A stretch of 20,000 bases of DNA, taken from an uncultured virus (IMG/VR IMGVR_UViG_3300026081_000002). Its lineage: Duplodnaviria; Heunggongvirae; Uroviricota; Caudoviricetes. The stretch lies in the IMG/VR virus record IMGVR_UViG_3300026081_000002; one strand, written 5' to 3'. A program made the translations under genes and the position numbers. The notes beneath the pieces were generated by a model. The model was not told where the DNA came from. It did no database searches and saw only the letters and a list, made by a program, of their open reading frames with translations. Each line of letters starts with the position of its first letter. Within the stretch, counting starts at the first letter, position 1. Positions 4,357-20,000 of this stretch are shown piece by piece.

Positions 4357-4578
4357 ATGAAACTAGTTAGAATAAACGGACAGAAAGATTTGGCTAAAGA
4401 TGAAGAGACAGGTGCCGTCTTAAATACAGACGTTGAACAGGTTGAACAGGCCAGAGAAATAAAGGAAAAAAGAAAAGAAAAAGAAGACGAGTTTACACGA
4501 CTGCAGGAAGATGTGAGTGAACTCAAGATGATGATGAAACAACTATTAGAAAAAATGAGTAAGGAAGAAGATGGCTAG
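4357..4578 (+). CDS. Small conserved phage hypothetical protein with C-terminal coiled coil
   Basis: ATG directly follows the upstream TAG. The N-terminal DLAKDEETGAVLNTD and heptad-like LQEDVSELKMMMKQLLEK resemble the small gene that commonly follows the DUF4815 gene in marine T4-like phages. Confidence 0.75.
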   Translation: MKLVRINGQKDLAKDEETGAVLNTDVEQVEQAREIKEKRKEKEDEFTRLQEDVSELKMMMKQLLEKMSKEEDG

Positions 4579-4813
4579 AAAAACTTATGTTGATCTAAGC
4601 GATACCATTGAAGCTTGGCGAGTAAAAACAAATTTAATTTCTTCAAATGTAGGAGACTTAGACAGTTTAGCAACTGCTCTTCCTGACTCAGATCTCGTAC
4701 ACGCAATCAACTATGTTTACAACGAAAACATCAGAGATATTAAGTTTGATATTCTTAAGTCTGATGGATCACTTGTAAAAAGGGTATTCGGTTATACTGA
4801 CTCAGGAGTATAG
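4571..4813 (+). CDS. Small putative virion protein with fibritin/fiber-like N-terminal motif
   Basis: AAGGA upstream and 8-nt overlap with the previous gene. Contains SDTIEAWRVKTN and DLVHAIN motifs seen at N-termini of T4-like fiber/whisker-type proteins. Confidence 0.65.
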   Translation: MARKTYVDLSDTIEAWRVKTNLISSNVGDLDSLATALPDSDLVHAINYVYNENIRDIKFDILKSDGSLVKRVFGYTDSGV

Positions 4814-4816
4814 CAC

Positions 4817-5878
4817 ATGGCGTTTCGCAGGCCCTTAAAAATCCACTATCCTACAAAAGATTTGAAGGAGATGTCAGACTCTGACATTCTTAGCCTGCGT
4901 CATCGTGCAATTTATTGTTATGGTACAGACCCCTCAGTAAAACTTAATTATGTTAATGATTCTGGTAACTTAGGAACTATGATCGATCAAAGAAGTATTG
5001 CTGGTGCTGGACAAACAAGTTTAAATGACGCTTTAAGTAATAAAACATCATTGACTTCTATTAGCTGGTCAAAAATTAATTTGCAATTTGACTCTAGCTT
5101 TACAGGAGGAATTGTAGATTCCGGAAGTCAATTTCCAGTCTATTGGGATAGTGCCAATGACGCGATAAGAGCGATGACTGATTCAGATTTTTATGATACG
5201 ATTACGAGACCTGCGATTGATATATTAACAAACGGATCGTTAACTAATAAACAAGCTGGAATATTTCACTTCTCAACCGACAGTGCTTCTGATTCAGATT
5301 CAACGCTAGTAACTTCTAATCCTATTTTTATCGATACTGTTGCAGACGTGGAAGCTTATAGAGTAGGGAGTTTATATGAAACTATAGATCAGCCTAAGAC
5401 TTTAGAAAAGTATTACTTGCATAAGATGAATGCTGATTCTTCTATCTCACCTGGTAATCTTCTTCCTAAGTTATTAAAGATATATCAGAACACGGCTGAC
5501 TCAAATCATGTTGGTGTACAAGAATACGATAGTAGTGGAATGGATGACATTTTATGTAAATCTATAAATCACACTGCAAAAAATGATTCGCAGGGATACT
5601 GTTTAAGATATTTACTCGATTCAGATGGATCTGGATCTGGCTTACAAGTTGGTACTTCTATATTGGATAAAATATACGAAGGAGAAAGAATGAGGAAAGA
5701 CAACTCTGGTAAGTATCAAGTAGTACCAGCAGGAGATAGTCATAATCTGTACAGCGGATATGGGTACGGTTATGGATACGGATATGGATACGGGTACGGA
5801 TATGGTAGTCCAGATTCCGATAAAACTTTGACTATAAATAAAACATACTCACTAAAGGTTACAAAAGGAATATGCTAA
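4817..5878 (+). CDS. Putative virion protein, Asp-Ser-rich, with (GY)8 tract near the C-terminus
   Basis: AGGAG RBS upstream; 353 aa; S/T/D/G-rich; 16 DS dipeptides by manual count; SGYGYGYGYGYGYGYGYGS tract. Structural role inferred from composition and context. Confidence 0.65.
   Translation: MAFRRPLKIHYPTKDLKEMSDSDILSLRHRAIYCYGTDPSVKLNYVNDSGNLGTMIDQRSIAGAGQTSLNDALSNKTSLTSISWSKINLQFDSSFTGGIVDSGSQFPVYWDSANDAIRAMTDSDFYDTITRPAIDILTNGSLTNKQAGIFHFSTDSASDSDSTLVTSNPIFIDTVADVEAYRVGSLYETIDQPKTLEKYYLHKMNADSSISPGNLLPKLLKIYQNTADSNHVGVQEYDSSGMDDILCKSINHTAKNDSQGYCLRYLLDSDGSGSGLQVGTSILDKIYEGERMRKDNSGKYQVVPAGDSHNLYSGYGYGYGYGYGYGYGYGSPDSDKTLTINKTYSLKVTKGIC
5756..5806 (+). repeat. Coding hexanucleotide repeat encoding (Gly-Tyr)8-Gly
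   Basis: GGA TAT GGG TAC GGT TAT GGA TAC GGA TAT GGA TAC GGG TAC GGA TAT GGT, in frame with CDS 4817..5878. Confidence 0.95.
5833..5840 (+). promoter_or_regulatory. T4-type late promoter TATAAATA
   Basis: Exact match to the gp55-dependent late promoter consensus, 31 nt upstream of the ATG at 5872, inside the 3' end of the preceding CDS. Confidence 0.65.
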
Positions 5879-5985
5879 CAGAAGCTAAGTGTGAAAAATG
5901 TGGACATAAGTGCCATTGTGAAAAGGAATGTGAAGAGTGCGTAAATGACATATGTACTGGTTGCAGGTGCGAAAATTGTAAGTAA
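5872..5985 (+). CDS. Metallothionein-like Cys/His-rich miniprotein (37 aa), not in the ORF track
   Basis: MLTEAKCEKCGHKCHCEKECEECVNDICTGCRCENCK-stop: 10 Cys and 2 His in CxxC, CxC and CHC arrangements, no Phe/Tyr/Trp. Overlaps the upstream stop by 7 nt, follows a late promoter, has AAGG/AAGGA upstream, and fills an otherwise empty gap. Confidence 0.8.
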   Translation: MLTEAKCEKCGHKCHCEKECEECVNDICTGCRCENCK

Positions 5986-6004
5986 ATAAAGGATAAATTA
6001 TATT

Positions 6005-6445
6005 ATGGCTATATTTTCTGAGACGTTTATTGATGCGCATTTTATTGATGCTCGAAAATCTCATATATCGATATATTACAAAAATAAAAGAGGGCAGACA
6101 GTTAACTACTACATACCGTGTACGTGGGAGCACCCTGATTTTCAAGATTTACAGAAACTTATTTCTCTCGAAGATCTTGAGAAAAAATTAAATCAATCCA
6201 GAAAAAAAGCAAGAGAAGATAAAATTGAGAGACTTACGCAACCTCTTGATGACATCGATACTATTTTCGATTTTCTAGTAGAGAACGGAAATAACGTTAG
6301 GTACTTATTTCCTATGAAAGTAAAAGTACTGCAGTTAGATCAAGTAAAAAAATCAAAGTCAAAGTTAATAAAAAATAAAATTCAAAAAAGTAAAAACATT
6401 CTTGAACTTATGGGAATTGTTGGAAAGGTGATGAGTGGCAAATAA
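6005..6445 (+). CDS. Hypothetical protein with Lys-rich helical C-terminus
   Basis: AAGGA RBS at about 5989; 146 aa; overlaps the first GT gene by 11 nt; no recognised catalytic motif. Confidence 0.75.
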   Translation: MAIFSETFIDAHFIDARKSHISIYYKNKRGQTVNYYIPCTWEHPDFQDLQKLISLEDLEKKLNQSRKKAREDKIERLTQPLDDIDTIFDFLVENGNNVRYLFPMKVKVLQLDQVKKSKSKLIKNKIQKSKNILELMGIVGKVMSGK

Positions 6446-7190
6446 AATTGTATATATGAGATGGGGTGAACTGTACACTGAAGATCATGTTAGTAAACTA
6501 GAAGAACAGGTAAATAAGAACTGTTCTGTTGATTATGAGTTTTGTACTATGGAGTCCTGTCATAAAGGTTCAGCGTTTGATAGAATGCAGGAACTACAAG
6601 ATCGTTTTTATAGAGGAGGAATGAATCCGGAATCTTCTATTACAGAAAGAGAGGATTCAAACTTCGAGAGAGAAGATGCTGGAGGATTTGCTCACTTTCG
6701 CAAGTATCTCATGTTTATGAGAGACAAAGAAGAGTTTAAGGAAGGAGATGTTATACTGTACATCGATCTTGATACACTTGTAACTGGTGACTTAGCATAC
6801 TTTTTTGACTTGGATATGGAAAGGCCGTGGATAACAAGAAGTTGGCAGTTCCAAGAAGGATTCAAATGGAAAAGATTATATCACCTAAGAAGCTGTCCAT
6901 ACTTTAATAGTTCTGTCATGGTTTGGAAAGTTGGACAGAACATGACAATATTTAATGAGCTGACCAATCCGGATCATGATGAAGCAGTATTCTTTCAATA
7001 CGGAATAAACGACAACTGGTTATTTCATAGATTTGGCCCTAATGCTTATGATGAGACTAGAAGAAGCTGGTTCAATTTCTTTGAACCTGAAGTTGTAGTT
7101 TCAGATAAAAGATTTCTAACAAGTAAAACACTAATACATACTTTAGCTGGTATGACAATGATAGAAAAAAATAAATTATGCTTACAATAG
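6435..7190 (+). CDS. Putative GT-A fold glycosyltransferase (GT8-like)
   Basis: GTG start with AAGGTG upstream. N-terminal YMRWGELY..HV..L...V..N, DxD motif ILYIDLD, FNSSVMVW and INDNWL. Confidence 0.75.
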   Translation: MANKIVYMRWGELYTEDHVSKLEEQVNKNCSVDYEFCTMESCHKGSAFDRMQELQDRFYRGGMNPESSITEREDSNFEREDAGGFAHFRKYLMFMRDKEEFKEGDVILYIDLDTLVTGDLAYFFDLDMERPWITRSWQFQEGFKWKRLYHLRSCPYFNSSVMVWKVGQNMTIFNELTNPDHDEAVFFQYGINDNWLFHRFGPNAYDETRRSWFNFFEPEVVVSDKRFLTSKTLIHTLAGMTMIEKNKLCLQ

Positions 7191-7876
7191 ACAAGATTAA
7201 TATTAATAATGCTTTAGTAGATACTCTTTCTCAGATGGATAATAATTATCCACATAGAAAAGAAGATTTTTATAAAGCTCTACACCCATACGTTTTAGAT
7301 CAATGGATATGGGCTTCAGAAGAATTAATGAGACACTTTATATTTCCTGAGAAAATGGAATGTGAAAATGCTAACGTGTTTGCAGGTGGCTATTGTTTTT
7401 ATCCAGGACACTTCTGGAAAAAATGGGGACTGAAGAACGTGTTTCTGTATGACTTAGATCCTGAAATAAAACCTGTTAACTGGAGTTGTTTAGAGTATAT
7501 ACGAGATTATGTTAACATTGACCAAAAATCTCTAGATGTTTTGATAGATGATCAGTTTGTTTCAAGAGATAACATTGACATGGTTATTAATTTGTCATGT
7601 GAGAGTATGTACGATATGAAACACATTATAAAGAAAGGAACTTATCCTAAGAATACTATATTTGTATTTCAAGGAACTGACAAGATTCAAAGAGGAAACA
7701 TTAATGTTCATAAGACAATAGAAGAGTTTGAACAATCTACATCATTTGGAGAAGATGATATTTTATTCAGTGGTGAGAGAGATGTTAATTTTGGAAATTA
7801 TAAAGGAAGTGGCGCTCACAAAAGATTTATGGTGATTGCAAGGTATAACTATGAAAAACAGGATAATTTGCAGTAA
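7178..7876 (+). CDS. Putative class I SAM-dependent methyltransferase-like protein
   Basis: Rossmann-like pattern: NVFAGGYC (motif I-like), LYDLDP (acidic end of strand 2), DMVINLSCESM, IFVFQG, GNINVH, RFMVIA. Confidence 0.6.
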   Translation: MLTIDKININNALVDTLSQMDNNYPHRKEDFYKALHPYVLDQWIWASEELMRHFIFPEKMECENANVFAGGYCFYPGHFWKKWGLKNVFLYDLDPEIKPVNWSCLEYIRDYVNIDQKSLDVLIDDQFVSRDNIDMVINLSCESMYDMKHIIKKGTYPKNTIFVFQGTDKIQRGNINVHKTIEEFEQSTSFGEDDILFSGERDVNFGNYKGSGAHKRFMVIARYNYEKQDNLQ

Positions 7877-8501
7877 ATGGGGTGAGACGTTTGATGATAG
7901 TGATGTTAACACTTTACATCGTCAAGTAGAAGCTAACTGCTCAGTTCCATTTGATTTTATATGCTATGATAAGTTCAAGCATGATCTTTCTAGATTTGTG
8001 CCGCACAATAGAAAGGATCATCATGTAGATGATCAAGGTGGGTTGAGTCACTGGAGAAAATTAACTCTGTTCGATGATGTTCATTTTGGAGAAGATGATA
8101 AGATATTATATCTAGACTTAGACGTTGATGTTAAAAGTGACTTAGCATATTTTTTTGAGTTAGAGAACGATAATCCTTACATAATATGGAACCACTGGTG
8201 GGAAAGAAAACCTGAAGAGTGGTTAAGACAATATCATCAAGCAAGATGTCCATTGTATAATAGTTCTACATTGTTATGGAAGACTGGACAGAACAGGGCA
8301 ATATTAGCGTTCTTATTGGCACATGCTGAAGAGATATTCTTTACGTATAAAAGAATAGACACTTTTATGTTTCACTGCTTTGGTCCTCACAGTACAAGAG
8401 ATCACTTTAAATATTTTGATGAAGGTATCATAACTTCGCACAGGTTGGTTGGTGATTCGAATCCTGGGATCATTCACTCATATGAAGGAATACTACATTG
8501 A
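7851..8501 (+). CDS. Putative GT-A fold glycosyltransferase, paralog of 6435..7190
   Basis: Start better placed at ATG 7851 (AAGGT RBS). IICSKWG, HWRKL, ILYLDLD, DLAYFF, CPLYNSS, WKTGQN and FHCFGP all align with the first GT. Confidence 0.75.
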   Translation: MKNRIICSKWGETFDDSDVNTLHRQVEANCSVPFDFICYDKFKHDLSRFVPHNRKDHHVDDQGGLSHWRKLTLFDDVHFGEDDKILYLDLDVDVKSDLAYFFELENDNPYIIWNHWWERKPEEWLRQYHQARCPLYNSSTLLWKTGQNRAILAFLLAHAEEIFFTYKRIDTFMFHCFGPHSTRDHFKYFDEGIITSHRLVGDSNPGIIHSYEGILH

Positions 8502-9130
8502 ATTATTGGGAAGGGTTAGACGACATTGATAGAGAATGGGCTTCTCATCGTTGGCAAAATATTCTTTCGGAATACGGTGAGGCAAAGCCTTTCTTTATGC
8601 ATAATCTTAGAGAAGAATCTTCTGTAACAGAATATCTAATTCAAAAATATTGGATGGGCATCCATACAAAAGGAGAAAAAATAAACATACTAAATTCAGG
8701 ATTAAGTTTTTGGTCCGTTCCGTTTGCGGCAGAAAAAAATGCAGCTGCAATTCATACGTATGACATGTGTCCTCTTGCTGACAAATTATCTTGGATCGCA
8801 AATAAACAATACTCAGCAATTCATACACATCATAAAATTAATACAGTATTTGATACCGATCGTATAGAACTCGATGCTGGTGTTTGGATAAACACAAGCT
8901 GCGAACACACTTATCCTGTACATGATATTATTCCAAAAGGCGCGACTTGTGTTTTAAGTGGAAACAACTTAAAGAAAAGAGGTCATATTAACTTAATAAA
9001 TAGCCTTATGCAACTAAAAGTCCAAGCTAATCTTTCAAAGATAGAATCTCAAGAAGTGATGGTGTTCGATTATGAAGATGAATTAGGAAAAAGAGAATAC
9101 GAACAGTTTATTATTATAGGTAAAAAATGA
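8498..9130 (+). CDS. Putative class I SAM-dependent methyltransferase-like protein, paralog of 7178..7876
   Basis: TTG start overlapping the upstream TGA, GAAGGA RBS. INILNSG, TYDMCP, VWINTSCEHT, CVLSGNN, GHINLI, QFIIIGKK. Confidence 0.65.
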   Translation: MNYWEGLDDIDREWASHRWQNILSEYGEAKPFFMHNLREESSVTEYLIQKYWMGIHTKGEKINILNSGLSFWSVPFAAEKNAAAIHTYDMCPLADKLSWIANKQYSAIHTHHKINTVFDTDRIELDAGVWINTSCEHTYPVHDIIPKGATCVLSGNNLKKRGHINLINSLMQLKVQANLSKIESQEVMVFDYEDELGKREYEQFIIIGKK

Positions 9131-10020
9131 AAAGAAGAGTTATATTCACAATCTATATTGATATTCCAGAGCACTTACTCGATGAATCTGGTTATTCTAG
9201 ACATGCAAATGTAAATAGACATAGGGCAAATAGAGCAGGTGAAACTAAGGATAAACTAAGTGTTTATAAAAACAAACTTATGTGGACACAAAAGAATTAT
9301 GCAGACATATGTGATGCAGACTATAAGATATTCATAAACAACAAGCAGTGGGTAGACTATTATCTCTCAATGAAGAAAGTTCATGAAGGACTTCCTATGT
9401 ATCATATTGTTAACTATTATAAGCATCATCTACTATATGAATTATCAAAAGACTATGATGAGGTTTTTTATGTAGATCTAGATATTATCCCGGTCACAGA
9501 AGAAAACGTATTTGAAGAGCATGACTTATCATACTTTTGGGCTAAGAATAATAATGAGTTAGCTGAGTGGGGAAAAAGATTTGACTTGTCAAAGTATGAT
9601 AGTTGTGATAGGAATCCTGCAATTAAATATTGGAACTGCTATGCACTATTACTTCAGGAAGGATTTGAACCAGAAAATGATGTTATTAATACTGGAACTA
9701 TGTTAGGTGGAAGAGAAGTTCTTCAAGAAATAAACTGGCCTGAAAAGTTTCCGATCATGGTAGAAAAGTTAAAGAAGCTACAAGATGATGATGAGACTAT
9801 GTTTCCTCCAGCACTCCATAGTAGGTTTGCATTTGACAATGAAACAATGACAAGTTATCTTGTCAAATCAGAAAATTTTAAATATGCAAGTCTTTCAGAT
9901 GAGTGGCACGGTAGATTACCAGACAATGGAATTGATCCTAATCATAAAATCATTCATGCTATTAATAAAAGGTTTGAATTTATTTGGCCTGACGTAAATT
10001 TTGAAGGAAGAAAGTTTTAA
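9127..10020 (+). CDS. Putative nucleotide-diphospho-sugar transferase (GT-A; GT8/GT34-like)
   Basis: ATGA overlap. NYADICDADY, NYYKHHLL, VFYVDLDI (DxD), INTGTM, DNET, EWH and IIHAINK. Confidence 0.7.
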   Translation: MKRRVIFTIYIDIPEHLLDESGYSRHANVNRHRANRAGETKDKLSVYKNKLMWTQKNYADICDADYKIFINNKQWVDYYLSMKKVHEGLPMYHIVNYYKHHLLYELSKDYDEVFYVDLDIIPVTEENVFEEHDLSYFWAKNNNELAEWGKRFDLSKYDSCDRNPAIKYWNCYALLLQEGFEPENDVINTGTMLGGREVLQEINWPEKFPIMVEKLKKLQDDDETMFPPALHSRFAFDNETMTSYLVKSENFKYASLSDEWHGRLPDNGIDPNHKIIHAINKRFEFIWPDVNFEGRKF

Positions 10021-10691
10021 TGCAGATACATTTATTTCGTATAGGAAATAAGTATGGGCCAGAATATGAAATATATCTCAATAAAAAATTAAAAGAATAC
10101 AATGTAGTTTGGCATCGCGAAGCTTTTGATAAGAGAGTTGCTCTTCAATGGAACAAGATGCTGTGCATGAATCTTGATATTGATGAACCTATTGTGGTTA
10201 TGGATATAGATCTCATACTATTGAATAATTATCAAGATCTATTAGAGTATAAAATAGAAAGAGGCCAGTTTCTTGGTATGGCAAGCTGGTGGGGTTCACC
10301 TCCGAGTCATATTCTGAACGGAGGTTTTTTTAAATATTATCCAAAAGACTGCAAATATATTTATGATAAATTCATGAAAAAAATTAGTTATTGGCAGCAG
10401 CACTATATTCTTAAAAGAATAACTGTAGGTCCAGTAAACGGAGAGCAGTTTTTTGTAGAAGATTCTGTTAATGAGAATCTAGATCTCATAACATTTCCTT
10501 CAAAGTGGGCGACAAGATGGACACAGGATCCTAAGACCAATAGAGGAATATCTAGAAGATATGCTAGGTATTTTCATACTCCTCTACAGATACAGTCAAA
10601 TATATTTAACAATGACATAAAGCTCATTCATTTCACACATTCTTTAAATAAACCTCATGAATCGGAGATGTTTGCGCATCTCTACGACTAG
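10020..10691 (+). CDS. Putative GT-A fold glycosyltransferase (GT8-like)
   Basis: TAATG overlap. IGNKYGPEY, QWNKM, VVMDID (DxD), LNGGFF, GEQFFV, LIHFT...KPH. Confidence 0.75.
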   Translation: MQIHLFRIGNKYGPEYEIYLNKKLKEYNVVWHREAFDKRVALQWNKMLCMNLDIDEPIVVMDIDLILLNNYQDLLEYKIERGQFLGMASWWGSPPSHILNGGFFKYYPKDCKYIYDKFMKKISYWQQHYILKRITVGPVNGEQFFVEDSVNENLDLITFPSKWATRWTQDPKTNRGISRRYARYFHTPLQIQSNIFNNDIKLIHFTHSLNKPHESEMFAHLYD

Positions 10692-10696
10692 TTTTG

Positions 10697-10704
10697 TATA
10701 AATA
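10697..10704 (+). promoter_or_regulatory. T4-type late promoter TATAAATA (near-copy TATAAATC at 10706)
   Basis: Exact consensus in the only sizeable intergenic gap, directly after the last GT and upstream of the structural genes. Confidence 0.8.
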
Positions 10705-10711
10705 CTATAAA

Positions 10712-10737
10712 TCTTAGAGTTTCGAAACTCTTTGAGA
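10712..10737 (+). other. Hairpin containing the perfect 16-bp palindrome AGAGTTTCGAAACTCT (10716-10731)
   Basis: TCTT-AGAGTT-TCGA-AACTCT-tt-GAGA; the stem extends across a 2-nt bulge with one G-U pair. Lies at the expected 5' end of the late transcript. Confidence 0.6.
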
Positions 10738-10764
10738 AGACTCATATCGCTAGGAGTAGAAAGA

Positions 10765-11154
10765 ATGGCGCAGTACGAAGATCTCATTGTCGATCAAGGC
10801 AGTGATGTCGAGATAAAACTCGAGTTATTTAATCCTGATGGATCACAAAAGATATTGAATAAGTTCAATATTGTTACGCAGACGTTAGAACCTATGTTCA
10901 ACGCTTCAGGTAAAATCAAAAAATCATTTAATTCAAAAGATTCGGATTCTATTTCGTTTGGTGCATCTACTATTTCACCTTCAAACGCAGAGAATGAGTT
11001 GTATTTAAGTTTAACTAATACCGTAACTGATGCTATGAAATCAGGTAGGTATGTTTATGATGTAGAAATCTCCGCAACAGACAGTTTTGGTGTCACCACA
11101 ATAGAAAGAATACTTGAAGGAAAGCTTACGGTTTCACCTTCAGTTACGAAGTAG
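10765..11154 (+). CDS. Conserved phage virion protein (baseplate/BppU N-terminal-like, DQG family)
   Basis: Start better placed at ATG 10765 (AGGAG at 10752). MAQYEDLIVDQGSD...LSLT...T..MKSGRYVYDVEI...RILEGKLTVSPSVT. Confidence 0.75.
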   Translation: MAQYEDLIVDQGSDVEIKLELFNPDGSQKILNKFNIVTQTLEPMFNASGKIKKSFNSKDSDSISFGASTISPSNAENELYLSLTNTVTDAMKSGRYVYDVEISATDSFGVTTIERILEGKLTVSPSVTK

Positions 11155-11155
11155 A

Positions 11156-11458
11156 ATGGCTGAAATAAAAGTAGTATCTGGTAGAACAATAATAAAAAAG
11201 ATTACCGTCGGCGTTCCAGTCAGAGCGGTTAAGTCTTTTGCTATTAGTACAGATATAGGTTCTCTTAATAATGTTACTGTGGCTGGTGGTAGATTTAGAG
11301 ATGGATTTGTTCTATCTTTTGACAGTGAAAATCAAGAATTTAGAGCTGACGGCATATTAAACCTACAAAGATTGGATGGAGGAGATTCATTTGGATTAGA
11401 CTCACTACCTCCAGGAACAATCACACCACCTATTACATATAGTAAGGCTCAGAACTAA
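11156..11458 (+). CDS. Small fiber-associated virion protein
   Basis: Start better placed at ATG 11156, one base after the upstream TAG. IKKITVGVP, IGSLNNV....DGFVLSFD and LDGG motifs typical of phage fiber segments. Confidence 0.6.
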   Translation: MAEIKVVSGRTIIKKITVGVPVRAVKSFAISTDIGSLNNVTVAGGRFRDGFVLSFDSENQEFRADGILNLQRLDGGDSFGLDSLPPGTITPPITYSKAQN

Positions 11459-14400
11459 TGGCATCATTAATTCAAATAAAAAGATCGCAGACCCAAATTA
11501 CACCGGGTAGTTTAAGAGTAGGTGAATTAGCTTACTCAATGACTGATAGCGGTCTTAAACTTTATATAGGTGCTGGTAGTCCTGATTCGTTTCAAATGGC
11601 TGACAGTGTTCAGTCAATTGGTGGTCGATTTTATACAAAAAGATTAGATGTAGATAGTTTAGGAATATCTGAACCGGGTAAGTATCTTCTCCTAGGTGAT
11701 TCAAGAAATGTAAATTATTTAAAATTAGACTCCGGTGATGTTAATCAATTAAGAATATCAAACAATCTAGTTGTACCTGTAGGGACTGATTCACAAAGAC
11801 CTGTACCTTCTGCACTTGGACAAATTAGATTTAACACCACACAAACAACCTTTGAAGGATATGATGGAGTAGCATGGGGATCTTTAGGTGGTGTAAAAGA
11901 CGTTGATCAAGATACATTTATTCTTGCAGAAACAAGTCCAGGTGCTGATAACGACGACTTACAGTTCTTTACAAAAGGAATAATGAGGATGCAGATAACA
12001 GACAGTGGTTCTGTTATCCTTCCTCCTGACTATGTTCCAGATAGTCAGATGTCGATCGTTAATAAACAATATGTCGATAACGTTAAAGCCGGGTCTCCAT
12101 TAGATAGTGACTGGACTGATGGTGCTTATATGCACTTTAAAGATAGTAATAGAGTTACTGACGTTTTAGATGGTTTAAACGAAGCACTTAACAACGTAAG
12201 AAATAACTGTTTCGTAAGAGAATTTACTTTTGTAGCAGTACCTGATAGAGGTGGAGAAGGATTCACTACAACTCTTAATTTTACTATGGACGGTCAACCT
12301 AATAGATACACTATTGACTGGGGTGATAGTTCACAAACTGTAGCTACACCAGATGCTACTCCTTCTCATACATATACAAATGCATTAAAAAGTCCAGCAA
12401 CTGTTACAGTAAGAGCATTCAATACTAATGCAGTTGGAACTGGTCACGAGGCCTTTAGAACAAATAAAGATTATATCATTATATACACAGCAGATCCTAC
12501 TGCAGACTTTGAACTATATAGAACTGCGCAAGGAGGAACTGCTCTTACAGGAAATGATGTATACGTAATTGAAGGTCAATCTCTATATCTTAAAAATACA
12601 TCTACAAATACACAGGTTGCAAATAAAGCTGGACCGGCCCTGGTACAATATAACATGGAGTGGGCGGATGGCACTGTACTTGTTGATATTCCTAGTGATA
12701 GTGCGTCAGGTGGTGTAATTGGAACAAGACTACTACATAACTGGGGAGGCGGAACGAATACCGGAACTGGAAGAGATAACCTCATCTTGACAATGGACTC
12801 ACACAGTACAGCAGACCCTGCAGTTATTCCTCAAACAAAAACAGAACTATTAAAAGTCTATAATCCTAACATTGCTGCACCTGCAGGATTAAGTACAAAA
12901 ACTATAACCTTTGTTGATAATATAGGATCAAGTCCTAAGCTAGCAGCGAACTGTCCATCTAACATTCCATCAGGACAAGTTGTAGCTGCTGGTGATACAG
13001 TGTTAAGAACAGATAAAGTTACTGGAAATATTGAGTGTACACCTAACACATCTTTTGCGCACAGCGCAGGTTCTGGTGTGTTATCAGCTCAATTTAATAA
13101 TGCAGCTGACGGACAAGTTACAATGGATGGGACAGATAAGACCGGCACATACACAAGTTTAGCTTACGGTCAGCATACAGACATGAATCTTTTTGATCAG
13201 AACGGTGACTCAACATCATTCGCTACAAGCATATATCACCCAGGACTATATCATGGATTCAAAGCATCTGTTAGAAAGAACGCTGCAACTGTTCCGTTTG
13301 GTGTTAACAATATATTCTTAAAACACAGTACAACTGGTGAAACTAATAAACTTGAGTTTGTAAAAGATGACGTAACACTTAGGCCAACAATGAACTCTGC
13401 TGGTAATATTGCGCAAGGAAATGCAGGTCAGTTCAGATACATCAGTGGAATACCATACTATAATTCTGGAGCTCCTACGCTTACGCTATCTGGTCACACG
13501 ATAAGTGATTGGATAGGAAAAACCTACAAGGATACTTCTCAGGTTTTACAGATACGTAGTGGAACAAATCATGAAGGAAGTACAGGTACAGCAATAGGGG
13601 GAGATCAACACTATTCATACGCAGCAATAGACGGAACACCTACTTATTTAAGCAGTGGTATACCTATTGCTGACACAGGAAATGGGTCTACATATAACTT
13701 AGGAAACATAACTATTAATATTAATACTGGAAACGTTAGGACTGTAGAGCAGTTAAGAATGAGAGCTCAAAACGTAAATGGATACGGTAACTACGTCAAT
13801 ATTCCTGAAAAAATATCTGTTCATACTATTAATCAGTATGGAATAAGTGAGATAGCAGTAAGCGTTTCAAATAGTCTTGGAGAACAGTATTCTGATGATG
13901 GAGTACGTATTTTCGATCTCGCCTCAGAAATTATAAATACTCCTAACTATAACAGTGCAACTAACTTTTATACAAATAATATATACACTGAAAATTCAGA
14001 CCCTGGAATAGTTGGAACGAAAGAAGCTTCAGTAAGACTAGGAATAATAAAACACGATGTTACTGACTACAGTACAGGTTTTCTTCCAGTAGGACCAAAC
14101 AGAAGTGGAGATACTGGAACACAATACTTTACGATGGCATGGCGAAGAAGAGCAACAGCAAACTTTAATATTAACATAACAAGTCCTAGTGGAGTTGCTG
14201 CAGTTCACATAGCTGCACCTGGAACAGCAATCGACACTACTAGTGGAAACAATGGGTGGTTAGATTGTGAATTACAATACAATGGTTCTGGAGTTCCAGG
14301 TTCAAATATAGGTGCAGGTGGTAATGGAAGTAATGGTTGTGCATTTACGGGAGCAGACAAAATTGCACCTAATGTAGCACTTAACGGATCTTATACTATG

Positions 14401-14502
14401 ACTTTAGGAACAGAAAACTTAACAAATGCTACTGGTAATGTATGTTTAGTGAGAATAGCATTAACGGCAAATCAAACAATAACAGCGTTGAGCATTTCAT
14501 AG
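11458..14502 (+). CDS. Tail fiber/virion appendage protein with PKD-like domains
   Basis: TAATG overlap. N-terminal IQIKRS...PGSLRVGELAYS attachment motif; PVGTDSQRP...GQIRFNT....FEGYDG.AWGSLGGVKDVDQDT fiber module; NKQYVD; PKD-like YTIDWGD...SHTY and MEWADG; T/G/N/S-rich. Confidence 0.75.
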   Translation: MASLIQIKRSQTQITPGSLRVGELAYSMTDSGLKLYIGAGSPDSFQMADSVQSIGGRFYTKRLDVDSLGISEPGKYLLLGDSRNVNYLKLDSGDVNQLRISNNLVVPVGTDSQRPVPSALGQIRFNTTQTTFEGYDGVAWGSLGGVKDVDQDTFILAETSPGADNDDLQFFTKGIMRMQITDSGSVILPPDYVPDSQMSIVNKQYVDNVKAGSPLDSDWTDGAYMHFKDSNRVTDVLDGLNEALNNVRNNCFVREFTFVAVPDRGGEGFTTTLNFTMDGQPNRYTIDWGDSSQTVATPDATPSHTYTNALKSPATVTVRAFNTNAVGTGHEAFRTNKDYIIIYTADPTADFELYRTAQGGTALTGNDVYVIEGQSLYLKNTSTNTQVANKAGPALVQYNMEWADGTVLVDIPSDSASGGVIGTRLLHNWGGGTNTGTGRDNLILTMDSHSTADPAVIPQTKTELLKVYNPNIAAPAGLSTKTITFVDNIGSSPKLAANCPSNIPSGQVVAAGDTVLRTDKVTGNIECTPNTSFAHSAGSGVLSAQFNNAADGQVTMDGTDKTGTYTSLAYGQHTDMNLFDQNGDSTSFATSIYHPGLYHGFKASVRKNAATVPFGVNNIFLKHSTTGETNKLEFVKDDVTLRPTMNSAGNIAQGNAGQFRYISGIPYYNSGAPTLTLSGHTISDWIGKTYKDTSQVLQIRSGTNHEGSTGTAIGGDQHYSYAAIDGTPTYLSSGIPIADTGNGSTYNLGNITININTGNVRTVEQLRMRAQNVNGYGNYVNIPEKISVHTINQYGISEIAVSVSNSLGEQYSDDGVRIFDLASEIINTPNYNSATNFYTNNIYTENSDPGIVGTKEASVRLGIIKHDVTDYSTGFLPVGPNRSGDTGTQYFTMAWRRRATANFNINITSPSGVAAVHIAAPGTAIDTTSGNNGWLDCELQYNGSGVPGSNIGAGGNGSNGCAFTGADKIAPNVALNGSYTMTLGTENLTNATGNVCLVRIALTANQTITALSIS

Positions 14503-14511
14503 GAATCAAGA

Positions 14512-17500
14512 ATGGCGATTAATGACAATCAAAAATTAGACTGGTTATGGAAGAAGCTCGGTTATAACGTAGCAAAAACTGACGTTAACTCTCAGAAAAA
14601 CGCTACGAACGAGAACATTCCAAGTCCACTTCTTATGAGAGGTGATAACCTCTGGACTGACGCTTTATTCATTCCTTCTACCTTTCCAGGAGCTTCTACA
14701 CGAGTTGTAAAAATATATGATGATTCTGGTAACGGTGCATCTACTGTTGAAACAACAATGGATACTACCGCCACTTCTAACAGAACATGGAAAACTGGAG
14801 TTGGTGACTGGATTCCACCACAGTTTGGATCAACATATCAAGTAAAAGTTTACTTGGATGTTTCCGGTGCTGCTGCCCCTCAGTCAACAGGTACTCAGTT
14901 ATTTGCTGCTGGTTCAGGTAATAATGACGAATGGTACTTTGACTATGATGCTGGTGTACTTAATTTTATAGGTGACAACTTACCCGGAGGAATGTCTGGT
15001 AAAGTCATATATATTGTCGGCGCTGCCTACATCGGTAAAAAAGGAAACAACTTTAAGGTTATAAACGCCGACTCTGCTAAGATTGGTCACATGTTTGCCG
15101 ACTCAGTCGATATTCATATGGCTGATATTGTAACTGCATATATCGACTCAGCTGATATTATACATGCCTTTATAGACTCTGCAAGAATTGATATAGCAAG
15201 AATTGATTCAGGTATAATCACAGATCTTGTTGCAACAACAGGATATATAAGTCAACTTTCAGCTGACAGCGCAAACATAACTAATTTAACTACAAGTAAG
15301 CTATACGCTCCACTTATTCAAGGTCCTGGTGAGATTATAATTGACCCACTCTCTTACAGAGAGTCAGACGGTTCCGGTAATATAACTGATAGTGGAAGAA
15401 GTGGTCAACTTACTATACTAGGAAACCTTCAGGTAGAAGGTACACAAACTGTAGTAAATTCTACAGTCGTAACAGTTAATGATAAAAATCTTGTACTAGG
15501 TGATTCTTCTCAGAGTGCTACCATGTCAGATGGTGGTGGTATTATATTAGACTTAGGAAACGATGGTACAGCAGAAATAGTATATAGGTCAGTTGGTGAC
15601 AAGTGGGAGCTCAATAAACCTCTTCATGTTGGTCATCTAGATGCTGATTCTGCAAACGTAAGATCTTTTTCTTCTGACTCTGCAGTAATTGAAAGAGGCC
15701 ACATAAAACAATTTACTGCTGATTCTGGATTTCTTTCTAGAATAGATATTGACTCAGGATTTGCAAATAATTTTAATATTGATTCATCTAAAATCCAAAA
15801 CGCCACTATTGAAAAAATCCTTACAGTTGGCGGCACTGGTAAATTTGAGTTTATAGATGCTGATTCTGCTCATATAAGAAGCTTAAGAGTTAATAACTTT
15901 AAACTTCTAGGTGTTGATTCATTTAGATTCCTTATGATTGACAGTCAAGGAAATATGAACACCGATAATAACTTTACTGCAAATAAAACTATCGCCAATT
16001 TTTACCAAGGTGGAATGACGATTAACTCGCAAGGTGCAGTTACAGTCGGAAAGAGTATAACACTACCAACAACTACGATTGATTCGAGTGGCATCACCAC
16101 ACCAATGATCAATACAGACAGGATGACACTGACTTCACTTCAGCCTGGTATGATACTTCATGGTGGAGCTCAAGACTCTTTCTCAATGTCAAATGAGATA
16201 ACATTTAAAGCATCACCTTCCAACTTTACGAGTGTTGATGGGTTTAATGTTAGCTTTGAGCCTGTACAGGATTCTGGTTACTATAACTTTAATGTTGATC
16301 AACAGACAGGAAGGATATTAGGTAAAGGTGGATTAAAGATTGGAAGATTTAATAATGATCCAGTAGGACAGTATATTCAAAACTATCCTTATAACAAAGG
16401 TGCAAACACTAGAACATTTTTTGGAATTGATCTAGAACTAGACTCAGGTAAGCTTGTATCTACTGCCTACAGAAATATATTTAAGTCTCCAAAATCTACA
16501 AGTATGCCAAACACTGATAGCTTTGATGTTATCGATGTTATGAGTCTCGAAGACAGCATGCTCTTTCAGGTTAAAGCGGACGGATCTATTAACTTTTCTG
16601 GTAATATTCTAAAAAATGGTCAGATCTTTAGTGGCGGTGGTATTTTTACGAAAGATGAACCAAGCGGAGATGCTTTCTATTATCCTCTGCCATCGATACT
16701 TGATCCTACACTCAATCCAGGAGTTGCTCAAACTAAAAACATGTTTGGGTTCGGTCGTGTTTCTCTTAACTCACCTGAACCAAAATACAATTTTAGTGTT
16801 GATGGAACTTTTGCTTCAAAAGGATTTATAGATTCTTCAAAAGCTGAGTATGTACTTGTTCCCGGATTTGAGAATGGTGGAACAGTCTTTGCTGATGATT
16901 CTGATAAAGCTAGGATGTTCTTCATTCCTACATCAGGTATGCTTCGAGCAGGTGTACAAGATAGTATAGGAATGAACAGAGCCAATATGGGAATGTTCTC
17001 TATTGGACTCGGTTATAAACCACAGGCACTAGGAAAAAGCTCTATTGCAATGGGTTGGGGATCAAAGGCTCTCGGTGAACATTCAATCGCGATCGGTCAT
17101 AAGAATACAACAGGAAATAGTGTCAATACTGGTGGAATCGTAATTGGTATTGAAAATAGACTGGATTCTATTGCAGGTCAGGCTCAAGACGCCATTGGGA
17201 TAGGTATAGTCAACAGAGTTAAAGGTGATAGAGCTAAGATAATTGGCGGCAATAATATGATTGCTGGACAAGAAGCTGGTATCTTTGGTGACCAAAACGT
17301 TATGGGAGATTCAGCAAGCACCACAAGTACAGGTAACGCTGCTGGATCTTATATAATTGGTAATCTTAACACAGTCGGAAAAGCGGGTGGTGCTTTTGTT
17401 ATGGGATTCTCCAACACTCTCACTAACAATGCAAACGCTTCTTATACAATTGGTAATAATAATATTATGGACGCAACTGGAGGAATCACCCTCGGTACTC

Positions 17501-20000
17501 AGAACCAAGTACGTCCTAATGGTGGTATAGCAATAGGATCTTTAATCACAGTTGATTCCACATCAAATTTCAGTATAGGTATTAATCTCAAAAACACTGA
17601 AATGACAGTCAGAGATCCAAACATTATGTCCATTCAAGGTGGTAACGTAATAGTTGGTGCTGACTCTGATAAGTTTGAAGCTGGAGGATATGATGCTGAA
17701 GGTAACCTTTACGTTTCTGGTGACATAGTAATTGGAGGTAGATACTTAGCTGAAGGAGCTTCAGGATCAGCAACGACTGCTTCTCCATGGGATGATGATG
17801 GATCTATAGTCTCAACAAACTTAGGTGGTAGAAGTGTTGCAATTAATAAAACTACTGCACACCAAACATTTGAAGTACTTTCTCAAGCAGGTGCAACTCT
17901 TGCTATGGGACAGATCAAAACACCAGACGTTGCATTTCCTGGAGGAGTTGCTGTAGGTGATTCTGATCTGTTTGACTCTTCAAATACAAATAGAAGTTTA
18001 TTAAGTTATATACCTAAAGCTAGAGTATTAAGAGTTGGTAGTTTTACTAGAGCTCAGCTTCTTGACAGTAACGTAGGTTATGGATCTTACGTACTTGGTC
18101 CCGGTAACCTAGCTGCTGGAAAAGATCAGTTCGTACTTGGTAAAGACAACAGGTTTCATAGAGGTCACCCTTCTGAGGTTGACTCTTTTGGAAGTACATA
18201 CGACACTTACAATACCACTAAAGGTCAGAACAATATAATAATTGGTCACTCTAATATAGGTGACAGCGCAGAAGGCGCAGGTGATATTAATACTGGTTCG
18301 AACCATATTATACTCGGTTCAAGTAACAGAATATCTGGAAACGCAACAGATAATATAATAATTGGTAGAAATGCTACGATAGGTAGTGGACGAAGTAATA
18401 GAATTTATATTCATCACGCTTCTACTGCTTCTGATAGTTCTCTAAACAATACAAAAGTTACGATAGGTAAGTCTCATCCAACGGTACCGGCATCTGGACC
18501 AGATGCTTTTGGTAACTATGCTCTAGATATAAGAGGTGATATTCACTTAGACAGTGGATCAACTCTATTCATAGGTTCACAGACTATTAAACAACACGTC
18601 GGTATTGGACCTCCAGCAGACCAAGCAGATCCAAACATCGGCGGAGGACTAGGTGGTAGTTTAGGAGCTCTTGTCGGCACACCTGGATCTCCAGCTATAC
18701 AGTCAATTAGTACAAATAATGCTAATGAATTAGTTGTAACAACGACAACTGCACACGGATTTACTTCAGGTGACCCGAACTTAGCAATTGCTTTTACAGG
18801 TATTCACGGATCTGGCGAAAGCTCTAATGGTATAGACAGTATCAATAGTCCAAACTTTTACTTTCCAGTAGTTATTGATGCTAATTCATTTAGATTAATG
18901 CATGACTCTCCTGGTAACGTTACCGGAGAAGCTTTCGTTAGATTTAATCCGCCTGATGGAAGAGGACCTACACTAGTAGGAGATATTAACTTTATAAATG
19001 CAAACGCCGGAGGTCTTTTCGGTAGTATTGAGAAAAGATACTGGGAACCGCAAGTAGTTCTTCCAGATAACTTTGCTGTTGGTGGTGACTTAAGTGTTAG
19101 AGGTAAGTCTCTTAACTTAATAGCAGATTCTGCTGGATTAAGATTTACTGCAACTGGTAACACTGCAAATACTGCGTACTACAAATTTGATTCAAGCGGT
19201 CCAAGAATTAACAGAAGCACACTAGGACTAGGTGAATTAAGTCTAGACCAATACATTATGAGAACAGGCGAGAAAGGTGGTCTTATTCAACCACATGTTC
19301 TCAACACAGTTGATACTGACTATGTGCAAGCAAGAGTCAGTCTTGATGCTAACTTTGTAATAGGTGCACAAGAACTTTACTTCAAGCCTTCTGCTGGAAT
19401 GAAGCCAGTACAACTTGGTCTTCTACCTGGTGATGTTGGTGTCTCAAATGATCCGGCTGGAAATAAATTTGACTATGCTATGCATGTTGCAGCGCTGTCT
19501 GGTCAAGGTGCTATTAATATTCGCGACTCACTCAACTTAATCGGAGCTGGTGCCTTCACTGGAACAGGTGGAGTGAGATCACCTGTATCAATAAATGGTC
19601 AGCCGTTCCCAACAATGTCATACCTATCACAAACAGGTATGGTCGATCAGACTTACATTAACAGCTTAGTAAAGATTGACTCTGTTGCACTTTCTAATTT
19701 TATAGATGAAACTTATCTAAAAGGTATCATTGATAGTACATACATCATGTCTGCTGCTAATGACAGTACTGACTGGCAGAGACAGGGTGATAAACTATTC
19801 TTTGGAACTTTCCCGAATGTAGCAAACGTTCAGGTAGGTGTTGGTACGTCTAACCCAACGTCAAAGTTTGAGGTTGCAGGCCATATAAAAGGTGATAGCG
19901 CTACTTACACCGGTCCTTTTATTATCGAAGGAGAAAAAGTAACAAGAGACTCAGAGTATACCTTTACACTAGATAGAAGCTTTCTTGTAGAAAATCTTCA
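14512..20000 (+). CDS. Very large tail fiber/adhesin-like virion protein (over 1829 aa), 3'-truncated; not in the ORF track
   Basis: AGGA RBS and ATG at 14512; frame 1 read manually with no stop to base 20000. MAINDNQKLDWLWKKLG...WIPPQFGSTY...EWYFDYDAGVLNF; GNLQVEGTQTVVNSTVVTVNDKNLVL; 5-residue repeats; YadA-head-like SIGLG/SIAMG/SIAIG repeats; VTTTTAHGF..GD; VGVGTSNPTSKFEVAG. Confidence 0.85.
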   Translation, partial: MAINDNQKLDWLWKKLGYNVAKTDVNSQKNATNENIPSPLLMRGDNLWTDALFIPSTFPGASTRVVKIYDDSGNGASTVETTMDTTATSNRTWKTGVGDWIPPQFGSTYQVKVYLDVSGAAAPQSTGTQLFAAGSGNNDEWYFDYDAGVLNFIGDNLPGGMSGKVIYIVGAAYIGKKGNNFKVINADSAKIGHMFADSVDIHMADIVTAYIDSADIIHAFIDSARIDIARIDSGIITDLVATTGYISQLSADSANITNLTTSKLYAPLIQGPGEIIIDPLSYRESDGSGNITDSGRSGQLTILGNLQVEGTQTVVNSTVVTVNDKNLVLGDSSQSATMSDGGGIILDLGNDGTAEIVYRSVGDKWELNKPLHVGHLDADSANVRSFSSDSAVIERGHIKQFTADSGFLSRIDIDSGFANNFNIDSSKIQNATIEKILTVGGTGKFEFIDADSAHIRSLRVNNFKLLGVDSFRFLMIDSQGNMNTDNNFTANKTIANFYQGGMTINSQGAVTVGKSITLPTTTIDSSGITTPMINTDRMTLTSLQPGMILHGGAQDSFSMSNEITFKASPSNFTSVDGFNVSFEPVQDSGYYNFNVDQQTGRILGKGGLKIGRFNNDPVGQYIQNYPYNKGANTRTFFGIDLELDSGKLVSTAYRNIFKSPKSTSMPNTDSFDVIDVMSLEDSMLFQVKADGSINFSGNILKNGQIFSGGGIFTKDEPSGDAFYYPLPSILDPTLNPGVAQTKNMFGFGRVSLNSPEPKYNFSVDGTFASKGFIDSSKAEYVLVPGFENGGTVFADDSDKARMFFIPTSGMLRAGVQDSIGMNRANMGMFSIGLGYKPQALGKSSIAMGWGSKALGEHSIAIGHKNTTGNSVNTGGIVIGIENRLDSIAGQAQDAIGIGIVNRVKGDRAKIIGGNNMIAGQEAGIFGDQNVMGDSASTTSTGNAAGSYIIGNLNTVGKAGGAFVMGFSNTLTNNANASYTIGNNNIMDATGGITLGTQNQVRPNGGIAIGSLITVDSTSNFSIGINLKNTEMTVRDPNIMSIQGGNVIVGADSDKFEAGGYDAEGNLYVSGDIVIGGRYLAEGASGSATTASPWDDDGSIVSTNLGGRSVAINKTTAHQTFEVLSQAGATLAMGQIKTPDVAFPGGVAVGDSDLFDSSNTNRSLLSYIPKARVLRVGSFTRAQLLDSNVGYGSYVLGPGNLAAGKDQFVLGKDNRFHRGHPSEVDSFGSTYDTYNTTKGQNNIIIGHSNIGDSAEGAGDINTGSNHIILGSSNRISGNATDNIIIGRNATIGSGRSNRIYIHHASTASDSSLNNTKVTIGKSHPTVPASGPDAFGNYALDIRGDIHLDSGSTLFIGSQTIKQHVGIGPPADQADPNIGGGLGGSLGALVGTPGSPAIQSISTNNANELVVTTTTAHGFTSGDPNLAIAFTGIHGSGESSNGIDSINSPNFYFPVVIDANSFRLMHDSPGNVTGEAFVRFNPPDGRGPTLVGDINFINANAGGLFGSIEKRYWEPQVVLPDNFAVGGDLSVRGKSLNLIADSAGLRFTATGNTANTAYYKFDSSGPRINRSTLGLGELSLDQYIMRTGEKGGLIQPHVLNTVDTDYVQARVSLDANFVIGAQELYFKPSAGMKPVQLGLLPGDVGVSNDPAGNKFDYAMHVAALSGQGAINIRDSLNLIGAGAFTGTGGVRSPVSINGQPFPTMSYLSQTGMVDQTYINSLVKIDSVALSNFIDETYLKGIIDSTYIMSAANDSTDWQRQGDKLFFGTFPNVANVQVGVGTSNPTSKFEVAGHIKGDSATYTGPFIIEGEKVTRDSEYTFTLDRSFLVENL
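15067..15291 (+). repeat. 5-residue-period protein repeat, block 1
   Basis: ADSAK IGHMF ADSVD IHMAD IVTAY IDSAD IIHAF IDSAR IDIAR IDSGI ITDLV ATTGY ISQLS ADSAN ITNLT. Confidence 0.8.
15643..15822 (+). repeat. 5-residue-period protein repeat, block 2
   Basis: ADSAN VRSFS SDSAV IERGH IKQFT ADSGF LSRID IDSGF ANNFN IDSSK IQNAT IEKIL. Confidence 0.75.
16999..17580 (+). repeat. YadA-head-like (about 14 aa) beta-roll repeats
   Basis: SIGLGYKPQALGKS SIAMGWGSKALGEH SIAIGHKN..., continuing as hydrophobic-G-x-x-N units (GIVIGIEN, AIGIGIVN, SYIIGNLN, AFVMGFSN, GITLGTQN, GIAIG). Confidence 0.7.

Follow-up and report, generated by a model that had tools for sequence, protein, structure and literature searches.

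The window analysed here, a stretch of 20,000 nucleotides, is the last 20 kb (positions 53835-73834) of a 73,834-base virus contig, and it carries glycosyltransferase-like and SAM-fold genes among structural proteins rich in the dipeptide Asp-Ser (DS). A preliminary description had proposed that DS is an acceptor site for a methylated glycan installed or extended by this adjacent cassette. The locus raises the question of whether DS is a tag and which enzyme acts on it. The contig was classed as a T4-like phage from matches to gp32, tail tube, hub, gp6, gp8, and gp25; the nearest named record was phage C48C1 (gp8 33% identical), followed by cyano- and pelagimyophages (25-27%). Genes g1-g91 were taken from the ORF table of the contig, and counts are given as seen versus expected, with the expectation derived from each protein's own composition. 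The DS-rich proteins of the window are as follows.

4571..4813, + strand: g79, 80 aa, 3 DS, weak alone by shuffle
4817..5878, + strand: g80, probable virion protein of 353 aa, 16 DS
10765..11154, + strand: g88, tail-fibre assembly/adaptor-like (PHROG 3304, E 3e-10), 3 DS, count not significant singly
11156..11458, + strand: g89, 100 aa, 3 DS (29/2000 shuffles)
11458..14502, + strand: g90, virion structural/fibre protein of 1014 aa, 15 DS
14512..20000, + strand: g91, fibre protein of 1829 aa or more, running off the contig end, YadA-head repeat, 47 DS

First, all DS counts of the preliminary description were reproduced: 16 DS and 34 Asp in the 353 aa of g80; 11 DS in the first 230 aa of g90, 15 over its 1014 aa, and none past residue 585; 47 DS in the 1829 aa of g91, with SD 7, DT 3, and AGY codons at 14 of the 47 serines; 3 DS in each of the ORFs at 4571, 10765, and 11156; and 0-2 in each of the six cassette enzymes. 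The counts of g80, g90, and g91 exceeded those of all 2000 shuffles (means 4.2, 5.5, and 12.5, respectively). The small ORFs were weak singly, 3 DS being reached by 112 (4571), 201 (10765), and 29 (11156) of 2000 shuffles. A whole-contig comparison, suggested earlier as a check, confirmed the enrichment: over all 91 ORFs, unselected, DS ranked first of 400 dipeptides (186 vs 111.6, log10 p -10; runner-up -2.7), and the spaced pairs D-x(1-5)-S were flat. The enrichment was restricted to gp7, gp8, and fibre-like proteins; gp6 and the hub were neutral, and a large Ser-rich protein at window positions 1-4356 showed no enrichment (8 vs 9.3). It extended beyond the window to gp7, gp8, and three proteins at the left end of the contig.

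contig 50472-53034, + strand: gp7-like protein and gp8 (g75, g76), 8 and 9 DS vs 2.9 each
contig 3-5511, + strand: g1, g3, and g4, DS-rich proteins

Between gp6 and gp7 we also observed a 275-aa gene without a family match (L003:13652-14479, contig 49651-50478), which among 45 loci was present only in three near-identical copies.

Subsequently, the sequence context of DS was examined in the 11 DS-richest proteins, a set picked after the counts had been seen. GAYTC occurred 92, 8, and 4 times in the three frames, and serine codon use within DS was the same as that of serine codons overall; therefore, DS is not a DNA motif, and selection acts on the peptide, as had been claimed. The residue after DS, previously described as unconstrained, proved to be biased: Ala was found 23 times against 8.8 expected, Lys 0 against 5.2, and Pro 1 against 5.0. 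L, I, V, T, A, S, or M followed at 65 of the 132 DS sites, and D, G, or N at 41. SD was neutral, and ES (7 vs 16.9), NS (28 vs 42.3), and DT (23 vs 37.3; 84 vs 97.8 contig-wide) were depleted.

Comparison with relatives showed that DS has been gained and turned over on conserved scaffolds. The g80 family contained 11-17 DS in 19 closer homologues, at positions that partly shifted, and 0-2 in 10 orthologues of other lineages. In gp8, DS reached at least twice the expectation in 22 of 30 and in 55 of 65 distinct relatives in two scans, the second made with a DS-containing pattern and keeping the best 80 of 587 matches, and in only 1 of 22 members of the C48C1 group. In G039 of that group, another variant of the tag, DSDL (L160, L304-L306), was counted in 26 different contexts across 10 proteins, against 1.7 expected. 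Orthologues of g91 carried 32-123 DS, the last value (38.5 expected) belonging to G025, a DS-rich genome of 220 kb rated complete, and the N-terminal family of g79 heads longer DS-rich fibre-like proteins, with up to 16 DS in 203 aa. Conversely, about 41 kb around gp8 showed no DS enrichment in Mosig, S-SSM7, S-8S55, OC, and pf16, and the T4-like major capsid protein was not tagged (3 DS vs 2.0-2.1). The tags are thus restricted to outer structural proteins. Two further features were observed in the window. In g80 (window 5756-5806), eight Gly-Tyr units with differing codons form a repeat of low model confidence that is missing from all 29 aligned homologues, and the first 200 aa of g91 (window 14512-15130) find matches, at 33-35%, among hypothetical proteins of Caulobacter phiCbK-like phages.

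Asp and Ser are common in turns, at helix ends, and in hairpins, and, without any covalent change, DS might simply serve there as a structural turn, bind a metal, or offer a chaperone or decoration protein a place to dock. Indeed, DS sites lie at such places, and some gp8 DS positions are conserved. In the g80 model (pLDDT 82, no match to solved folds), coil accounted for 11 of the 16 DS serines, helix ends for 4, and a strand edge for 1, a distribution like that of other serines. However, orthologues with the same scaffold manage with 0-2 rather than 11-17 DS, the five outgroup tail regions are unenriched, and so are SD, ES, NS, and DT. Together with the siphovirus tetrapeptide described below, these results make a purely structural role unlikely. 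It is very probable that DS is a tag for an enzyme-made modification.

The candidate enzymes in the window were then considered.

6005..6445, + strand: g81, conserved cassette companion of 146 aa without DS, also in Mosig and C48C1
6435..7190, + strand: g82, GT-A fold glycosyltransferase-like, DxD (Pfam GT8 E 2e-4, below cut-off; family profile LgtC E 5e-4)
7178..7876, + strand: g83, class I SAM-fold protein
7854..8501, + strand: g84, GT-A fold glycosyltransferase-like, DxD (Pfam GT8 E 3e-3; PHROG glycosyltransferase E 3e-5)
8498..9130, + strand: g85, class I SAM-fold protein of the g83 family
9127..10020, + strand: g86, GT8-like by alignment, DxD (Atlas neighbours 0.98, GT8 on 11-23% of members)
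10020..10691, + strand: g87, GT-A-like, remote member of the g82/g84 family

The four genes described as glycosyltransferases held up as GT-A/GT8-like on weak but consistent evidence; g82, g84, and g87 form one DxD GT-A family, the profile of which matches LgtC (E 5e-4). For the two described as methyltransferases, the class I SAM-binding fold was retained, but methyl transfer was not established because the best solved matches of the g83/g85 family profile were spermidine synthases (E 1e-7). The family, which includes L001:13696-14304, may transfer an aminopropyl-type group rather than methyl, as judged from this profile. PIMT-like Asp methyltransferases are associated with aspartimide formation, and the Atlas PCMT neighbours of the family stood at only 0.86-0.87, the profile favouring spermidine synthases. 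O-methylated glycans on Asp-Ser are known from Elizabethkingia; a methylated glycan was unsupported here, and the presence of the SAM-fold family does not track DS.

That the cassette at 6435-10691 itself writes on DS gains some plausibility from its real GT-A features, its position beside the DS-richest genes, and its synteny in many DS-rich relatives. However, Mosig carries at the same place g81, two g82/87-type glycosyltransferases, a g86 type, and a SAM-fold gene, yet its DS counts were 39/41, 96/118 over two stretches covering about 80 of its 141 kb (baseplate, fibres, and head), and 4/7.8 in the long fibre. Similarly, G060 has matches to g81, g87, and the SAM-fold family, yet its DS was 61/65. 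DS-rich G025 showed no strong match to the cassette families, and the SAM-fold family was absent from it in a six-frame search. Hence, the cassette is neither sufficient nor necessary for DS, and the proposed co-variation of the two did not hold. The earlier idea that the neighbouring genes install a methylated glycan is accordingly very improbable, and the gene that does co-vary, g21, lies outside the window. A supporting role, in which the cassette extends or decorates the glycan, is a possibility that we hold tentatively, by judgement rather than computation; g82 is a candidate variable extender, not the DS writer. At the place of the cassette, G025 has a run of genes (L298:8278-16787) in which radical-SAM-like cysteine motifs were seen by eye. 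Across 31 sequences of the first clustering, including those of Mosig and C48C1, g81 is the leading gene of the cassette region.

The gene g21 and the genes related to its setting are located in the left part of the contig.

contig 12543-15627, + strand: block g16-g20
contig 15615-16271, + strand, outside the window: g21, putative stand-alone transferase of 218 aa with a Maf/GT42 fold in its model
contig 25450-26232, + strand: KdsA (g43)

In structure searches with the g21 model, glycosyltransferases took the top two VIA rows, 4 of the top six there, and all of the top six in Foldseek. The model shares its fold with the GT42/GT29 sialyltransferases (CstI, CstII, ST3Gal, ST8Sia), enzymes that extend glycans, at 6-14% identity and with no Pfam match; it resembles the central, CstII-like GT-A variant domain of Maf. 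PF01973 (Maf_flag10/MptE-like) did not match g21, and 1 of 46 homologues reached E 0.008, under the cut-off. Full-length homologues were mostly 170-230 aa. A C-terminal W-x-P-x-W motif was present in 105 of 112 rows of one DS-linked g21 subfamily, 12 of 14 rows of the other, and 0 of 13 of a third; this motif is a lead only because it was noticed after the fact. The contig encodes GT25 (above cut-off twice), GT8-like, and Gmd proteins. A second sugar cluster (L001:5569-16271), directly after three DS-rich proteins and with g21 at its end, contains three GT25 genes, a GDP-mannose dehydratase, a cytidylyltransferase-mannose-phosphate-isomerase fusion, two methyltransferase-like genes, and a weakly heptosyltransferase-like gene.

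A remote homologue of g21 was found in DSL-LC06, a 30-kb siphovirus. The profile of its subfamily retrieved 25 loci, 20 of them DSL-LC06-like, and the tetrapeptide DSAG was counted in DSL-LC06 and seven contigs of 83-100% completeness. These eight siphoviruses contained 8, 9, 9, 9, 8, 12, 11, and 1 DSAG against 0.2-0.3 expected; among dispersed 4-mers, DSAG ranked first in six of them and second in one. Homologues of the head, tail, and fibre-block genes of DSL-LC06 held 65 of the 67 sites, which were encoded by 28 different codon strings. GenBank names four of the families (capsid, tail, distal tail, and hub), and the rest are hypothetical proteins placed in the virion by position. In the capsid, tail-tube, and hub alignments, DSAG falls in loops that vary; at these sites HTVC112P, HTVC026P, and HTVC111P show gaps or different residues, and each of the three phages had 0 DSAG and no g21 match in six frames. 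Among 34 families conserved in the siphoviruses, g21 was the sole one matching all six DS-rich T4-like genomes and no HTVC or Mosig set, whereas terminase in the same comparison matched nearly every set holding the gene, controls included. None of the 34 matched g82-g87, which further argues against the cassette as writer. DSAG is thus shared by proteins of unrelated folds and follows the presence of a gene with an enzyme fold, a pattern that argues against the structural explanation. A glycosyltransferase-like gene labelled KpsC in GenBank (L207:6408-7331 in DSL-LC06) is also present in all eight siphoviruses, and Pfam and PDB searches did not confirm the label.

In two lineages that are not related to each other, DS tags therefore accompany two subfamilies of g21, a link drawn from few lineages. 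Some genomes carry g21 relatives without tags: G058, G059, and G060 hold the third g21 subfamily, on one shared branch (90/87), with no DS or other evident tag, and no DS accompanies the very remote homologue in HTVC008M. In HTVC008M, this 185-aa ORF of the g21 fold family (L392:752-1309) is followed by a 481-aa gene that appears carbamoyltransferase-like by eye. Taken together, the DS enrichment is real, selected, and widespread, and the enzyme assignment shifts from the cassette to g21. The case for DS as an acceptor tag of outer virion proteins was strengthened by gain on conserved scaffolds, by loop insertions, and by the second lineage; the covalent modification itself is inferred.

We favour, with some reservation, the reading that g21 initiates Ser O-glycosylation at DS, in which the modification, the acceptor, and the writer would all be as deduced from the genes. 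DS would be a recognition tag that phages add to loops of outward-facing virion proteins, preferably as DSA generally, DSAG in the siphoviruses, and DSD/DSDL in the C48C1 group. The phage's own g21 would recognise D-S-(small) in such loops and use a CMP donor to attach an acidic sugar to the serine that follows Asp. Kdo is our best guess, and a ulosonic acid of this kind as the first sugar is conceivable at somewhat less than even confidence; as regards a CMP-ulosonate donor, KdsA/KdsB genes offer context only. Phage tails assemble in the cytoplasm, and transfer would occur there during assembly, in the way that Maf modifies flagellin. The outer glycan may then be extended, decorated, or varied by the GT25/GT-A genes next to g21 and by exchangeable cassettes, that of the window included. 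The expected outcome would be a glycan coat on the baseplate and fibres and, in siphoviruses, also on the capsid and tail tube; as speculation, it might provide charge, anti-adhesion, or fibre protection. A shared fold does not dictate the reaction catalysed. A different possibility is that g21 acts on DS but transfers phosphate, pyrophosphate, or a nucleotide, or targets Asp. The glycosyltransferases in the top rows of both structure searches, the position of g21 among glycosyltransferase genes in both lineages, and the sialyltransferase label of the homologue in the DSL-LC06 GenBank record make this reading unlikely.

Several known systems resemble the proposed g21 glycosylation. Maf of Magnetospirillum (PDB 5mu5) is a chain of 632 residues acting on a cognate flagellin, whereas g21 is one 218-aa domain presumed to act on many unrelated virion proteins with a short tag, Thr apparently being unused; no flagellin family was found among 71 contig proteins scanned. 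According to the available part of the Maf preprint (bioRxiv 10.1101/2020.06.03.131540), Maf enzymes can use Kdo, and the words 'consensus' and 'sequon' are absent from that part. The available text of PMC12871550 describes general O-glycosylation of exported proteins in Bacteroidota at D-(S/T)-(A/L/V/I/M/T), with transfer probably periplasmic from a lipid-linked glycan, as the only known motif-driven bacterial O-glycosylation. The phage tag shares with it an Asp directly before the presumed acceptor, Ala as the commonest next residue, and no substitution by Glu (ES depleted). A host enzyme of this type might therefore modify or the host select the tags, with g21 and the glycosyltransferases altering host LPS and sharing a host range; related pelagimyophage glycosyltransferases were interpreted as host O-chain modifiers (PMC7029224, as far as available). 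However, the Bacteroidota system, as described in that text, also takes Thr, favours a hydrophobic next residue, and acts on exported proteins, while the phage tag appears to use Ser only, DT is depleted, and Asp, Ser, Gly, and Asn are frequent next. The sequon drawn on earlier thus stands as an analogy only. Since the preferred tag also shifts with the phage g21 branch (DSA, DSD(L), and DSAG), a host origin appears remote. By analogy, g21 glycosylation would work like Maf with a Bacteroidota-like tag and belong to neither, having no multi-domain Maf, no flagellin, and no Thr use.

The short Asp-Ser tags on outer proteins, which track one small sugar-transferase-like gene in two unrelated groups of aquatic phages, suggest that these viruses give their virions a sugar coat at a fixed sequence motif. 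Some mycobacteriophages and chloroviruses glycosylate their virions with glycosyltransferases of their own. Mycobacteriophage virions are glycosylated at the C-termini of capsid and tail-tube subunits (available part of PMC12619734, citing Freeman et al. 2023). There, too, a tailed phage's own virion is glycosylated; here this is inferred from genes alone, and the presumed tags lie within the chains, scattered over many proteins, with as many as dozens in one chain. Among the literature listings and passages covered, no description of such virion tags was found. Our most specific proposal, offered with reserve, is that a mobile Maf-like enzyme, built of a single domain, recognises tags of two to four residues and attaches Kdo, or some other ulosonic acid, by O-linkage to hundreds of serines in each virion, and that unrelated aquatic myo- and siphoviruses possessing this enzyme evolve the tag into capsid, tail, and fibre loops, with one variant per enzyme branch. 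If true, this would be a sequon-directed cytoplasmic phage O-glycosylation, readable from genomes alone, with a natural protein-Kdo linkage; an acidic glycan coat on many aquatic virions would affect adsorption, particle stickiness, decay, and grazing, and site-specific glycosylation would gain a practical tool in an enzyme of 200 aa that needs a tag of four residues. Glycosyltransferase islands, a common feature of abundant marine phages, tend to be attributed to changes in host LPS with no substrate known; for them, a tag tracking one enzyme supplies a substrate and a candidate writer. In the available text of PMC7029224 and PMC12801897, the hypervariable islands of pelagimyophages and large cyanomyophages are read as host-surface modifiers, and no acceptor motif in virion proteins is named. 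They share with the present contig GT8-like clusters among tail genes, and S-SCSM2R carries KdsA/KdsB (PMC7029224, PMC12801897).
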